Shown one piece after another: positions 5,012 to 10,043 of a DNA stretch of 64,000 nucleotides (position 1 is the first letter of the stretch; each line of letters opens with the position of its first letter). The notes beneath the pieces are model-generated. The model was not told the DNA's origin. It was given only the letters and a program-made list of their open reading frames with translations, and made no database searches. The DNA is from an uncultured Acidobacteriota bacterium (GTDB lineage: Bacteria; Acidobacteriota; Terriglobia; UBA7540): positions 960,001-1,024,000 of the forward strand of contig CAWDSK010000005.1 in NCBI GenBank assembly GCA_963804995.1, in the 5' to 3' direction. The position numbers and the translations under genes were made by a program.

Positions 5012-5192
5012 GTAGCGCGGGTGTCCCCACCCGCGCTTTACGTGTCTCGTTGCCTCGGAGACGCGGGTGAGGACACCCGCGCTACAAGCGATCTGATAGC
5101 TGAGAGCTGAAAGCTGAAAGCTTTTCCTCAGCACCATGCCTCATCCCGATTGACCACATGCAGTTGCCGCTGGGGTATCGGGCAGAGAAGCC
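5012..5192. repeat. Repeat unit B1: GTAG-REPIN followed by a RAYT-like 3' tail
   Basis: GTAGCGCGGGTGTCCCCACCCGCG...CGCGGGTGAGGACACCCGCGCTAC (5012-5085), then a tail shared with B2 and B3. Confidence 0.85.
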
Positions 5193-5235: not shown

Positions 5236-5301
5236 ATGGAGATCGTCTGGGACCGCGCCAAAGCGAGGCAAAACGTGGCGAAGCACGGCGTGCGGTTTTA
5301 A
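5236..5301 (+). pseudogene. brnT: Truncated BrnT-family toxin (21 codons)
   Basis: MEIVWDRAKARQNVAKHGVRF* matches the BrnT N-terminal WD..K...N..KHG..F motif; lies directly upstream of brnA. Confidence 0.8.
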
Positions 5302-5303
5302 GC

Positions 5304-5558
5304 ATGAAAACCTACGAATTCAGTAAAGGAAAACGCGGACCGGTGCTGCCCGTGCCACCCGGCAAGGAACGCATCACCATTCGCCTGGACACCGACATTC
5401 TGGAATATTTCCGGGACGCGGTGGAGAGCGCCGGGGGCGGTAATTATCAAACCTTGATCAACAACGCGCTGCGCGCCTATATCGAGGGTGGACAGAAGCC
5501 CTCAATCGAGGAAACGCTCCGGCGGGTGATCCGCGAGGAACTGCGGACCGCGCCCTGA
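5304..5558 (+). CDS. brnA: BrnA-family antitoxin
   Basis: KERITIRLDTDILEYFR...GGNYQTLINNALR ribbon-helix-helix signature. Confidence 0.88.
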   Translation: MKTYEFSKGKRGPVLPVPPGKERITIRLDTDILEYFRDAVESAGGGNYQTLINNALRAYIEGGQKPSIEETLRRVIREELRTAP

Positions 5559-5680
5559 GGGGGCGGGATTGGGGAGCTGGGGGCCGGGATACGGGGCTCG
5601 GGATACGGGATTTGGCGATCCTGAATCTAGAATCTCAAATCTGGAATCGAAACTCGGAACTGGCTGTCGGCTGTGAGCTT

Positions 5681-5875
5681 GTAGCGCGGGTGTCCCCACC
5701 CGCGTCGAATCCGGGTGTTCCCACCCGCGCTTTACGTGTCTCGTCACCTCGAAGACGCGGGTGAGGACACCCGCGCTACAACCAATCTGATCGCTGAAAG
5801 CTTCTCTCCAGCACCATGCCTCAACCAGATTGACCACATGCGTTTGCCACGGGGTGCAGGGCATGAGAAAAGCCC
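5681..5875. repeat. Repeat unit B2: REPIN followed by a RAYT-like tail
   Basis: Direct repeat of B1 with an extra partial REP at 5711-5729. Confidence 0.85.
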
Positions 5876-5976
5876 CTGGTCACGACGCCACTGAACGTGG
5901 CTTTTAGCTACCCGCGTATTCCCTGTTTGCGTGCTTAGCCAGTCTGCGATATCCTCTCGCCCCGAGACACGCTCCT

Positions 5977-6237
5977 ATGCCTGAGACCGACAAAATTCTC
6001 ATCCAGGTTTTGCGCGGACAGTCCGACGCCAACCTGCGCTTTGCGGACCTCAGAGGATTACTTCAGCGGCTGGGCTTCGTTGAGCGAATTCGCGGCAGTC
6101 ATCACATCTTCTGGAAAGAGGGCGTCGAAGAAATTCTAAACCTCCAGCCCAAGGGGGGCAAAGCCAAACCCTATCAGGTGAAGCAGGTCCGGCATGTTAT
6201 ACTCAAGTACAAGTTGGGAGGCGGTTTAGATGCCTAA
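5977..6237 (+). CDS. hicA: HicA-family toxin
   Basis: LGFVERIRGSHHIF...NLQP...AKPYQVKQV. Confidence 0.9.
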   Translation: MPETDKILIQVLRGQSDANLRFADLRGLLQRLGFVERIRGSHHIFWKEGVEEILNLQPKGGKAKPYQVKQVRHVILKYKLGGGLDA

Positions 6238-6439
6238 GTACGAAGTCATCATCTATTGGAGCGAGGAGGACAAGGCCTTCATCGCCGAAGTGCCGGAACT
6301 TCCCGGCTGTGCGGCCGATGGCAAGACCTATCGGGAAGCCCTCGCCAACGTAGAAGTGGTCATCCAGGAATGGATCGAAACCGCCCAGGAACTCGGCCGC
6401 TCCGTCCCCGCCCCCAAGGGCCGATTGGTGTTTGCCTAA
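6230..6439 (+). CDS. hicB: HicB-family antitoxin (short form)
   Basis: YWSEED.AFIAEVPELPGC.ADG.TY.EAL; overlaps the hicA stop. Confidence 0.9.
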   Translation: MPKYEVIIYWSEEDKAFIAEVPELPGCAADGKTYREALANVEVVIQEWIETAQELGRSVPAPKGRLVFA

Positions 6440-6620
6440 CTGGCCCGGTTGACTTTCAAATTGCTTCTTTCCGTTCTTGATAACTTAAAACTGACAACTA
6501 AAGACCTTTTTCTGCTGTCGGCTGGTAGCTTGTAGCGCGGGTGTCCCTACCCGCCCTTTACGTGTTTCGTCACCTCGAAGACGCGGGTGAGGACACCCGC
6601 GCCTGGAGTTTCTACATTTA

Positions 6621-8000
6621 TTATGCATCAGCGGCGTGGGTGAGGGCGCGGTCGGTGAGTTGGAAGCCCAGAGATTGGGGACATTCCGGGTGGTCGACCA
6701 TTTCTTGGCGCAGCAGGGTGACGAGGTCGAGGCAGGAAGGGCGGTGGGCCTTGCGTCGCCACCGGGGCAGAGCCTGATAGGCCGTGCCACGCTCGGTGCC
6801 GAAGGCTTGGAGAGAAGCCAGGAGCAGCGCGCTGTAGGCGGCCACGACCAGGGCAGGTTGCTTGGGCACGGCGTTAACGTTCCATAACTGGGCTTGTCCG
6901 ACACCCAGCGTCTCCTTCTCGTCGCGGTGGTTGACTTCGATCTGCCAGCGGTCGAAGTAGATTTGCAGCAACTGAGGGGCAGAGTGCCGCAGGTCGGTGG
7001 TCAGCAGGTAGGCCGGTTGACGGTAGTAGAGTCTGGAGCTCTTCCGTTTGCGATAGGGGGTAGGAGCCACGACGAAGAGCCGCAGGGGGATCTGGCCGGC
7101 GCCCCGACGCCAGTAGACTTGCGACACCTCTTTATAACGGAGGCGGCGGCGCTTGCCTCCGTAGAAGAGCTTGGTTTGCTGCCAGAGGTGGGACTCGTCC
7201 TGCCGGACCTGTTCGGGGGTAAAGGTGGAGAGGGCGTAAAAGCGGCGAGAAGGCTGGGGAGCGCGAAAGCCGAGGCGCGCATCCTTGCGGGCGCGGGCGA
7301 TCAACTCGGTGCGATCGCGGGGGGCGCGCAGACAGGTGCGGTTGCAGAAGCTGCCATCCAGAGCCAGCACCAGCAGCTTGGCCCCACCCCCGGCCGCATC
7401 CAGCGCCTGGCGCAAGGGGGCCACGCTCTGCACAAAACGCTGCGAGAGGTTGTGGAGCTTGCGCATCCTTTTATATTCCTGCCAGGCTTCCTCTTTCGCC
7501 TTGCGGGAGGGCTTTTTCAGCGGCGCCGCCTCTTCAAAGCGCACGGGCAGAGCGCGGCAGCTGGCGGGGGCGTACCGATGCAGGGGCAGCAGCAGGGAAG
7601 CTTGCAGAAAGCGCACGCCGCGCAGGAGGTTGACATGAAAGGGGGGCGAGAGGGGATCGCGGTGATAACGCGCCTGGGGAATGGCGCGGCCGGTCTTGCG
7701 CAGGCGGGTGTCGTCGACGGCCACGCCCACCAGGCGGCCGGGACAATAGGGCAAGGCGCGGCGCCAGACGCCGGCAAACAACGTCTGCGGTTCCCAGTGA
7801 CAACGCGAGTGGAGAAAGTATTCGCTCGACCAACTGCGCTGCTGGCGGCCCTGGGTCCAGAGGATACGCGAAAGACAGCGTCGACCCACGCAGACCAAGG
7901 CGCCCAGGGCCTGGCGCACGGCGCGCTGCAGGGTGCGCTGCTGGGGAAAAGTGGGGGCCCAGTCCGCCACGATCTCCGACCAGGCGGCGAACAGAGTCAT
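6621..8000 (-). CDS. DDE transposase, IS4 superfamily (IS701-like)
   Basis: VAVDDT, LALDGSF and Y..RWQIE......K (YREK) motifs; stop codon abuts the IR. Confidence 0.88.
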   Translation of the reverse strand: MTLFAAWSEIVADWAPTFPQQRTLQRAVRQALGALVCVGRRCLSRILWTQGRQQRSWSSEYFLHSRCHWEPQTLFAGVWRRALPYCPGRLVGVAVDDTRLRKTGRAIPQARYHRDPLSPPFHVNLLRGVRFLQASLLLPLHRYAPASCRALPVRFEEAAPLKKPSRKAKEEAWQEYKRMRKLHNLSQRFVQSVAPLRQALDAAGGGAKLLVLALDGSFCNRTCLRAPRDRTELIARARKDARLGFRAPQPSRRFYALSTFTPEQVRQDESHLWQQTKLFYGGKRRRLRYKEVSQVYWRRGAGQIPLRLFVVAPTPYRKRKSSRLYYRQPAYLLTTDLRHSAPQLLQIYFDRWQIEVNHRDEKETLGVGQAQLWNVNAVPKQPALVVAAYSALLLASLQAFGTERGTAYQALPRWRRKAHRPSCLDLVTLLRQEMVDHPECPQSLGFQLTDRALTHAADA

Positions 8001-8332
8001 CGGGCCTCCGGACGTAAGCCGAAAGTGTTCTTCCCGGTACGCAGGAAGCGATCGCCGCGGGCGACTTTTTTGGTCAGCGAAGAGACCAGGCTCTCGCGAT
8101 CGACGGTGACGTAGAAGGCGGCGCGGAGGCGCGCCAGGAGTTCGGAAATGTGCAAGGGGGTACGGGCCTTCTTGAGTATGTCGTACGCCATGTCCACTTG
8201 GGACAGACCTGTGCGGCGCGGCCTCGGGGCGGGGGCTGGGGAACCGCCGCGGAGACGGCGAACCGCCCGCAACTGGGCATCCAGTGAGGCCTCGAATATC
8301 GAAAGAATGGAATCCTTGAGATCGTCAGGCAA
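7997..8332 (-). CDS. Small winged-helix protein (HARE-HTH-like), IS accessory gene
   Basis: AYDILKKARTPLHISELL...FLRTGKNTFGL; GGAGG upstream of the TTG start; ATGA overlap with the transposase start; lies inside the IRs. Confidence 0.75.
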   Translation of the reverse strand: MPDDLKDSILSIFEASLDAQLRAVRRLRGGSPAPAPRPRRTGLSQVDMAYDILKKARTPLHISELLARLRAAFYVTVDRESLVSSLTKKVARGDRFLRTGKNTFGLRPEAR

Positions 8333-8605
8333 GTTAACCTCCGGAGCCAGGACTCAGGAGGAAGGTAACGGAAATCAGGTCGGTCTGTCAATAGAAATAT
8401 TACTTTGCCAGACCTAAATGTAGAAACTCCAGACGCGGGTGAGGACACCCGCGCTACAACCAATCTGATCGCTGAAAGCTTCTCTCCAGCACCATGCCTC
8501 ATCCAGATTGACCACCTGCGTTTGCCACGGGGGCATTGGCATAAGAAAAGCCTATAGTCACAACTATGCGGACGGTCGACCGCTAATCAATCTTTGCCGC
8601 GGAAT

Positions 8606-9574
8606 TCACCAGTGCTTGGGGTCGTCCTTGAACTCGCTGTCCTCTAATTTCCTCAGTTCCGAAAGGCTTCCCGCCGCTTGGGACTTGACCATCTTCCACA
8701 CCTCGGCAAAAGCCTGTCGTGATAGATTAAGTTTCATGCCATCGGACCAATTTACCCACGTCTTCGCACTGATACGGCCGCTCCGTCTCAGAAATACTTG
8801 CTCATTAGATAGGTCCAAATAGTGGTAGATTCCATCCATACACTTAGAGAATTCGTCTGGAGTCAACGTCTGGCCCAGGAGCGCCTTGACGGGGATAGTC
8901 TTAAGGATTTCTCTGTATTGGTGCGATAGCCCATCCTCGAAAGCGGTTATGCTCTGTCTCTTGCTCAGCCAAATTTGCCAGCCAACGAAAATAACGCCGA
9001 GCGCTGTTGCGCATGATCCAATTGCCTGCCAGTTCATGATAGTAATCCTCAACTTGTAATCGTGGCCGTGCGGATACGTTGCGCTCAAGGCCAGACAGGT
9101 CAAGCAAAGCCACGCGATAAAGAAGAGCGAGGGCACCAACCGCATCAACCAACGGTAACTCGGCCAATCCACCCGGTGGATCTTGTAAAGCTCCGCAGCG
9201 TTGTTGTCATATTTGCTCGCAAAGTTCCATTTCGGTAAATCGGATTTTGTGTTCGATGTGGAATCCGAGGTAAGCGATTCCTTTTCAATTTGTTGGATCG
9301 CCGCCCACCAATAGTCAATATAGGATTGTACCTTCTGGTCGTTTCTAATCCAGACTCCAGTCAGGGCAAGTCCAAATGCGCAGGCAATAATGCCAAGAAA
9401 GTTGTTGCAGCCATCTAGGATTACCTTGCCAACACCAAGTAGTAGGGCCGTCTCAAACGCAGCGAAATAGTTTGTTCGGTGCCAGCCAGAATCTACCTGG
9501 AATCGCCAAGTTTCAAACAACAGGCGATATATTCCCAACGTCTCGGTTCGGTTCCGTTCTTGATCGGGCGTCAT
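8606..9574 (-). CDS. Two-domain membrane protein (RipA-like multi-TM N-terminus plus TM-anchored helical C-terminal domain)
   Basis: Several hydrophobic helices; second module begins MNWQAIGSCATALGVIFVGWQI; ATG at 9574 chosen. Confidence 0.6.
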   Translation of the reverse strand: MTPDQERNRTETLGIYRLLFETWRFQVDSGWHRTNYFAAFETALLLGVGKVILDGCNNFLGIIACAFGLALTGVWIRNDQKVQSYIDYWWAAIQQIEKESLTSDSTSNTKSDLPKWNFASKYDNNAAELYKIHRVDWPSYRWLMRLVPSLFFIAWLCLTCLALSATYPHGHDYKLRITIMNWQAIGSCATALGVIFVGWQIWLSKRQSITAFEDGLSHQYREILKTIPVKALLGQTLTPDEFSKCMDGIYHYLDLSNEQVFLRRSGRISAKTWVNWSDGMKLNLSRQAFAEVWKMVKSQAAGSLSELRKLEDSEFKDDPKHW

Positions 9575-9590
9575 GCGGTATTCCTGCTTG

Positions 9591-10043
9591 CTAGTTATCC
9601 AACAACGCTCCACTATCAAATTCGCTTGAAGCCTTGCGGCGGGCTGCAACGAGCCGCGCCCTAAGATCCTCAGGAATCACTGCACAAACAAACTCAATTT
9701 CTTTTGGTACGCGGCCTCCTGCTACCTCCTTTTGGCACTGGTCGAACATGTCAGGCTCCGTAAGAACGATGACCCGGCGCTTTGCCTCGACCAAGGTCAA
9801 AAAGAGCATGTCGGATCGTAGCTTCAGGATCTTGCCGACGGCGTGCTTTCCTCCCGAAGTCTTGGCGCCACTGGTTGAGACAGTGGCGACGATGGAGCGG
9901 TCTTCGCTTACTGCGTCAAAATCAAAGACCCCACCAGATCGGAGCGGCAGGCGCTCCCGCGAGAACTTGGTTCCAAAGTGCGAAAGCATCCAGTTACGCC
10001 TTACCCAGTCTTCCACTTCAACTTGAACGCGGGTATCTGCCAT
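9591..10043 (-). CDS. Hypothetical protein, possible restriction-endonuclease fold
   Basis: GAGG upstream of the start; FDFDAVS...IVATVST resembles a degenerate PD-(D/E)xK core. Confidence 0.6.
   Translation of the reverse strand: MADTRVQVEVEDWVRRNWMLSHFGTKFSRERLPLRSGGVFDFDAVSEDRSIVATVSTSGAKTSGGKHAVGKILKLRSDMLFLTLVEAKRRVIVLTEPDMFDQCQKEVAGGRVPKEIEFVCAVIPEDLRARLVAARRKASSEFDSGALLDN

Follow-up and report, generated by a model that had tools for sequence, protein, structure and literature searches.

The window analysed here, a 64,000-nucleotide stretch of the genome of an uncultured Acidobacteriota bacterium, contains an insertion sequence of 1830 bp at positions 6603-8432 with its genes on the minus strand. 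The element is bounded by perfect 18-bp terminal inverted repeats, one upstream of the genes (8415-8432, minus strand) and its partner downstream of the transposase gene (6603-6620, plus strand). It is flanked by two identical 22-bp target duplications (6581-6602 and 8433-8454), each comprising a whole REP hairpin with an 8-bp stem, a 4-nt loop and one extra base per side. The CTAC-tagged side of the REP comes next after the right copy. The other REP of the two-REP unit hit by the insertion (6530-6554) is GTAG-tagged, has an imperfect stem and is not duplicated. If the element and a single copy of the repeat are taken out in silico, what is left resembles the two-REP units that are still intact (5016-5085 and 5685-5781), and we can therefore conclude that one REP hairpin was duplicated. 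A preliminary description of the locus, which had reported the element with its perfect inverted repeats, the exact 22-bp direct repeat spanning the REP stem-loop, the duplication of a single REP and an ATGA overlap between a 111-aa gene and a YREK transposase gene, is borne out on all of these points. No empty site was seen in public sequencing runs, which hold related strains only, none with half of the stretch, and very thin RNA coverage, and Rfam gave no match at the locus.

The transposase gene (6621-8000, minus strand) encodes a 459-aa DDE enzyme in which D96, D215 and E355 are invariant and in which the complete YREK motif (Y348, R351, E355 and K362) is invariant across 49 aligned rows. 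It is preceded by a gene with a TTG start (7997-8332, minus strand), joined to it by the ATGA overlap, for a 111-aa protein that consists of an N-terminal helix, a flexible linker and a winged helix of the HARE-HTH, RNAP delta or Rok-like kind and is likely to be an autorepressor. The match to HARE-HTH (PF05066; E 5e-4, 20.8 bits) lies under the gathering cut-off of 25.9, and the predicted model has its winged helix at residues 45-106 with RNAP delta and Rok as the nearest, weakly matching folds (E 1e-3 to 3e-3). Further upstream lies a putative operator (8377-8415, minus strand), an imperfect inverted repeat with half-sites at about 8409-8415 and 8377-8389 which straddles a perfect TTGACA -35 box (8386-8391) and is seen only in HTH-type elements. 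The element's promoter was not called by a promoter scan; the -35 box was identified by eye and the -10 box is weak. A small putative stem-loop (8339-8360, minus strand), kept in part in relatives, covers what is probably the HTH gene's ribosome-binding site.

The surroundings of the element are themselves repetitive. The two-REP unit together with about 110 downstream bases is present twice (5663-5886 and 6514-6602/8433-8564; 91% alike), with a hicA-hicB toxin-antitoxin pair (5977-6439) enclosed by the two versions. Between the unit at 5663-5886 and another at 5016-5085 there is a gene for a BrnA-type antitoxin (about 5292-5558). The ORF immediately past the element (8606-9649, minus strand; 347 aa) has a membrane-protein domain of the 8xMP type (PF24838, E 9e-14), and after it come more uncharacterised genes that resemble a defence island.

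The family placement of the transposase was assessed by profile, fold and element architecture. The nearest model is NF049999 (IS701_3), with 131.9 bits against a cut-off of 170; NF033540 gives 33.7 against 150, and the best IS4 model 36.6 against 152. NF049999 is also the nearest model for all 49 aligned members, and sister elements with an AbrB-like small gene pass its cut-off (182.7 versus 170 bits). No IS30 or IS1182 model is among the Pfam and NCBIfam matches, and a search of solved structures by sequence returned nothing significant. The predicted model of the transposase (pLDDT 90.8) has Tn5 transposase as its best fold match (E 7.8e-11, TM 0.56). Canonical IS701 elements are 1400-1550 bp long, make a 4-bp duplication and mostly lack the YREK motif (PMC2266710); the element described here has 1830 bp, two genes instead of one, ends that differ from the family pattern ---YACT-Y--YR, a full YREK and, in this genome, duplications of 18-23 bp. 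With the IS4 family it shares the complete YREK and the predicted Tn5-like fold, although its duplications exceed the 7-13 bp of that family and its score falls below the IS4 cut-off. Because it departs from IS701 in size, ends, YREK and duplication, and from IS4 in duplication length, we treat it as a separate IS701/IS4-like clade. The predicted fold and the YREK motif suggest cut-and-paste transposition via hairpinned ends as in Tn5 and Tn10. The same genome also holds a canonical single-gene IS701 (G000:C1:633339-634466), which is over the cut-off for NF033540 and lacks a long duplication.

Seven near-identical copies of the element are present in the genome (99.7-100% identity), and all seven are flanked by duplications of 18-23 bp, one of them with a mismatch. 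Each copy has duplicated a different hairpin with a perfect 7-8-bp stem and a 3-4-nt loop, so the 22-mer in the window belongs to the target rather than to the element, and what the copies prefer is a shape. Only 327 of 200,000 random positions (0.16%) fall at a hairpin foot of this kind, compared with seven out of seven copies. The preliminary description had named short duplications at random targets and a 22-mer travelling with the element as findings that would count against it, and neither is what the copies display.

A sister insertion sequence of 1763 bp, whose transposase is 40% identical, is present in ten copies in this genome (for example at G000:C3:102361-104123). Eight of these have 18-27-bp hairpin duplications. 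The flanks of the other two are swapped, and they resolve to one 21-bp hairpin duplication and one 7-bp duplication that is not a hairpin; the latter, as an inferred insertion, is the clearest counter-example to the hairpin rule.

Relatives collected by genome and metagenome scans comprise 163 loci with at least 55% transposase identity, after 15 duplicate or own-genome loci had been dropped; 112 of them, with both ends and 35 or more bases of flank, could be scored. Duplications of 17-32 bp are found in 45/112 (36/66 genome loci and 9/46 metagenome loci), and 43 of these 45 are centred to the base on the dyad axis of a hairpin. The remaining 67 lack a matching long pair (65 have none and two have 3 bp), and no scorable relative has a duplication of 4-16 bp. 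Even in the unpaired relatives, a stem of at least 6 bp abuts the element end in 56/67 left and 60/66 right flanks, whereas each control offset gives 0-5 of 43-60. We read these flanks as collapsed assemblies or the outcome of recombination between copies, and the swapped partner was found in only a few cases. The hosts that carry names are mostly Acidobacteriota, with others in Hydrogenedentota, Nitrospirota, Armatimonadota, Pseudomonadota and Chlamydiota.

Pooling 44 of the relatives with 21 sites in this genome gives 65 sites with duplications of 17-33 bp, a range that rules out a fixed stagger of two helical turns. Duplication length tracks hairpin length, a check which the preliminary description had asked for: in 49/65 sites the duplicated stretch is as long as the hairpin span or two bases longer (Spearman 0.55). 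In 6/65 the hairpin exceeds the duplication by 4-10 bp, implying that cuts can fall inside the stem. The target sequences are distinct in 63/65 and a GTAG/CTAC tag is present in only 13/65, so a specificity for REP sequences is not supported. The targets differ from ordinary genome hairpins in their stems, which have 8 bp or more in 158/188 cases versus 538/1388 (mode 8 bp), and in their loops, with GNA triloops in 49/91 targets versus 97/700 genome hairpins in an unweighted background taken from one genome. GNA loops give rise to unusually stable DNA mini-hairpins, but a richness of REP-like repeats in GNA may also have other causes.

Among 23 more distant IS701-type loci, sampled through genome searches and most of them single-gene, none has a duplication of 12 bp or more, and 13 have candidate duplications of 4-8 bp, often CTAG or TTAG; hairpin duplication is thus a trait of the clade described here. 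Holophagae-like relatives (28-35% identity; L200-L205, L209 and L212) had no ends among the matches listed, and plasmids held only relatives of about 25% identity. In viral contigs no transposase relative was confirmed by alignment. One distant HTH-type element (L259, 48% identity) was found there via its HTH gene, in a phage-like contig of a viral collection, and its ends abut two different hairpins.

A small gene precedes the transposase in all 112 scorable relatives; in 98 it is of the HTH type, a conservation whose absence the preliminary description had named as a refutation, and in 14 it belongs to DUF6788. The HTH gene has a median dN/dS of 0.17 over 86 comparisons and overlaps the transposase gene through ATGA in 127/133 measurable junctions, which together mark it as a real gene. 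It occurs in 10 of 301 genomes, eight times beside the transposase, once in an element remnant and once as a weak stand-alone match. DUF6788-type elements have the same ends as the HTH type and make hairpin duplications likewise (6/14, three with imperfect stems). The small ORF of the sister insertion sequence is AbrB/MazE-like (a weak Pfam match, E 0.02) and has an A8 run at its junction with the transposase gene; a run of A8-A10 is found in 8/9 AbrB-type loci, where it likely serves a programmed -1 frameshift or slippage that would fuse the two products. A conserved -1 frameshift joining the HTH protein to the transposase was considered and rejected, as a slippery run is present in 7/133 junctions and the upstream frame is shorter than 20 codons in 24/133; in this genome that frame is open for 108 codons. 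On a quick tree of 70 transposases, whose distant rows in part have very long branches and are perhaps mistranslated (most of all L197), at least four small-gene changes involve DUF6788 and five involve HTH. A distant IS701/IS4-like element (L322, G434:C223) has an upstream ORF that is DUF6788-like by eye and a duplication of 8 bp that is AT-rich and not a hairpin, and the small-gene cassette therefore travels with non-hairpin elements too.

Each type of small gene is accompanied by a palindrome of its own at the promoter. At the left ends of the HTH type, the TTGACA box is spanned by an inverted repeat, which in its strict form is found in 74/122 HTH-type, 0/15 DUF6788-type and 0/10 AbrB-type elements and which spans 33-35 bp in 87/101 distinct ends. 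In four distant HTH relatives a changed but perfect repeat of 7-10 bp occupies the same place. The DUF6788 palindrome TTTCA-N9/10-TGAmA is present in 15/15 DUF6788-type, 0/122 HTH-type and 0/8 other elements, and the AbrB palindrome CTAGT-N6-ACTAG in 7/10 AbrB-type and 0/137 others, these motifs having been read off the very alignments in which they are counted and the DUF6788 right arm taking in the start codon. Covariation of the outer bases of the HTH operator is not above chance (36/96 versus 31.6 expected). On this sequence evidence, the winged-helix protein likely binds the -35 palindrome and represses the two-gene operon. Because every small-gene type comes with its own promoter palindrome, we infer that HARE-HTH, DUF6788 and AbrB-like genes represent three interchangeable autorepressor-operator cassettes. 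Five of the seven genome copies, not including the window copy, carry two altered bases in the right half-site of the operator (positions 52-53 of the element, counted from its upstream end), a change found in 0/120 relatives; the change may weaken repression, and we would guess at a derepressed variant.

The preliminary description had offered the HTH protein as either a targeting or a regulatory subunit. The targeting half of that idea is not supported, since relatives with an unrelated small gene (the DUF6788 and AbrB types) duplicate hairpins too. The regulatory half stands in a changed form, with the protein as a likely autorepressor instead of a subunit of the transposase.

A DDE transposase dimer joins two 3' ends to opposite target strands, and the stagger between the two joints sets the length of the duplication. 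The duplex geometry of a Tn5-fold enzyme is a poor fit to the sites described above because their stagger ranges over 17-33 bp and lies symmetrically around the dyad. On a cruciform the same stagger is natural, since the attacked bonds would be the two 5' feet, which lie diagonally across the junction. We therefore favour, with a probability of roughly 0.7, a reading in which the transposase itself holds the targeting function and recognises a DNA hairpin by its shape and not its sequence. The palindrome would extrude as a cruciform, the Tn5-fold enzyme would join the two ends of the element at the opposite 5' feet, and fill-in of the two folded single strands would leave a whole hairpin on both sides. 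The winged-helix protein, as a swappable autorepressor, would meanwhile bind the palindrome over the -35 box and keep the two-gene operon in check. The cuts are symmetric and fall at the feet of the hairpin or one base outside them, as the preliminary description had supposed; the extrusion that it also invoked is deduced from this geometry. For a cruciform to form spontaneously, stems of 7-9 bp are short, and extrusion would accordingly need the enzyme, supercoiling or some other helper. A cruciform route to whole-hairpin duplication has been drawn by Wan et al. (Fig 13b; PMC5678879).

Every insertion of this kind would leave two hairpins open to new hits, giving rise to stacks and to cargo-carrying derivatives. 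Another element end is found right behind the hairpin in 7/258 flanks (one of them doubtful) versus 0/195 controls, from which it follows that duplicated hairpins are hit again. One contig of run X2 reads end-hairpin-end and could be a tandem or a circle.

Other explanations of the long repeats deserve weighing against this reading. REP-like repeats are abundant (the core of the window target has 38 copies in the genome) and insertions at intergenic sites are tolerated, so the element might carry its hairpins along, land between two existing REP copies or simply survive there by selection. This is very improbable: each copy has its own exact pair, and seven different pairs refute it; in the intact units the corresponding position holds just one hairpin; and selection for harmless sites can neither set the length of a duplication nor centre it on a dyad axis. 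Somewhat less remote, though still unlikely, is the idea that the target is no free cruciform and the enzyme has no shape specificity, the palindrome being caught at a stalled fork or a transcription-unwound region, or delivered by a host protein that binds hairpins or junctions. Host proteins do bind REP-type repeats, which many of the targets resemble. Gyrase is treated in connection with such repeats in a passage of PMC3733652. The shortness of the target stems, with their mode of 8 bp, and the one inferred non-hairpin insertion, the 7-bp case of the sister element, would also suit such a reading. The base-exact symmetry of the cuts in 43/45 sites, however, requires both strands to be folded alike, assemblies of several phyla show this behaviour too, and the duplications made by other IS701-type elements within the same phylum are short.

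It has also to be asked whether the small protein might be a required subunit for transposition or targeting, with HARE-HTH, DUF6788 and AbrB-like proteins as DNA-binding helpers that can stand in for one another and keep hold of the hairpin or of the ends. Some small gene is present in every hairpin-clade element with a readable left end, including all 112 scorable relatives; the ATGA coupling in 127/133 HTH junctions and the A8-A10 runs of the AbrB type, suggestive of fusion to the transposase, would be understandable for a working partner, and the distant single-gene relatives make short duplications. We nevertheless regard such a role as improbable, since three unrelated folds share the target and two share the ends, every type has its own promoter palindrome, HTH-type elements show no fusion that is conserved (7/133 have the slippery run) and the DUF6788-like gene of L322 accompanies a non-hairpin duplication.

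Whole-hairpin duplication has a precedent in IS1630 of Mycoplasma fermentans, a member of the IS30 family (PMC2853133, PMC3317919). That element works alike and also duplicates the whole hairpin; it has an IS30-type transposase, however, whereas an IS701/IS4-like enzyme with YREK and a predicted Tn5-like fold acts here, on GC-rich targets, with duplications of 17-33 bp and a separate small gene with its putative operator. The source paper for IS1630 is reportedly that of Calcutt et al. 1999. Certain elements within the IS1182 family are likewise said, by Siguier et al. 2015, to duplicate the whole stem-loop, although no IS1182 model matches the transposase studied here. Within that group, IS1272/IS1182 use hairpin targets without a sequence consensus, and pathway b of the cruciform model predicts that the entire stem-loop is duplicated (PMC5678879, PMC4923244). 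With IS1272 itself, part of the hairpin is lost and nothing is duplicated, in contrast to the duplicated hairpins found here. ISRm22 (IS4), ISPsy8, ISPpu9/10 and ISPa11 also insert into palindromic intergenic repeats; they do so at a fixed position in one REP consensus with duplications of 0-6 bp (PMC1525189), unlike the sequence-free targeting and copying of the whole hairpin described above. The IS4-related DDE elements IS1549 and IS1634 have long variable direct repeats (8-514 bp), for which the relevant passage of the IS4-family survey notes that a mechanistic model had yet to be put forward and states no hairpin rule (PMC2266710); in the present clade the length is set by the hairpin. In the literature searched, with ISfinder entries outside its scope, neither the duplication of whole hairpins nor the small genes are reported from IS701/IS4-like elements. 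To that extent the behaviour is new to such elements, as a variant of what is known for IS1630 and modelled for IS1272.

The genome also contains non-autonomous elements with the same ends. Miniatures of 163-175, 305 and about 510 bp lie next to hairpins (G000:C5:1182935-1183097; C6:1258121-1258295; C6:1411795-1411969; C6:703455-703629; C9:314569-314873; C3:683961-684475; C6:2041593-2042102). Four larger units (L002-L005; G000:C1:444888-451209; C6:1026896-1031991; C5:1245059-1255639; C2:304380-306945) lack a DDE transposase of this kind, and three of them share ends of about 70-100 bp. Hairpin duplications of 19-33 bp flank non-autonomous elements of both sorts (163-305-bp miniatures and 2.6-10.6-kb units). 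The cargo includes toxin-antitoxin and defence-like genes; genes for Zeta, PIN, NucS, ThiF, an IrrE-like protein, a dCTP deaminase and IS21 and Y1 transposases are among those carried. A bolder picture, to which we give a little less than even odds, is that of a widespread and hitherto undescribed clade of compact Tn5-fold transposases that would extrude short hairpins unaided and integrate diagonally across a four-way junction, doubling their targets as they go, swapping repressor-operator cassettes and mobilising toxin-antitoxin and defence-like cargo in trans.

Long variable duplications by DDE enzymes are called unexplained in the passage of the IS4-family survey that treats them (PMC2266710), and for these the clade offers about 65 natural sites. 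It also offers a simple rule that can be tested, duplication equal to hairpin span plus 0-2 bases, in a 459-aa enzyme near Tn5 in its predicted fold. In the part of PMC5678879 concerned, the cruciform route is drawn as a model, with no enzyme put to the test; here it becomes directly testable on synthetic junctions. Tools for annotation that look for short duplications would overlook the ends of such elements. Regulation of an insertion sequence would here take the form of a swappable repressor-operator module. If the reading holds, the transposase would be a structure-specific, sequence-free integrase and possibly a probe for cruciforms in living cells.
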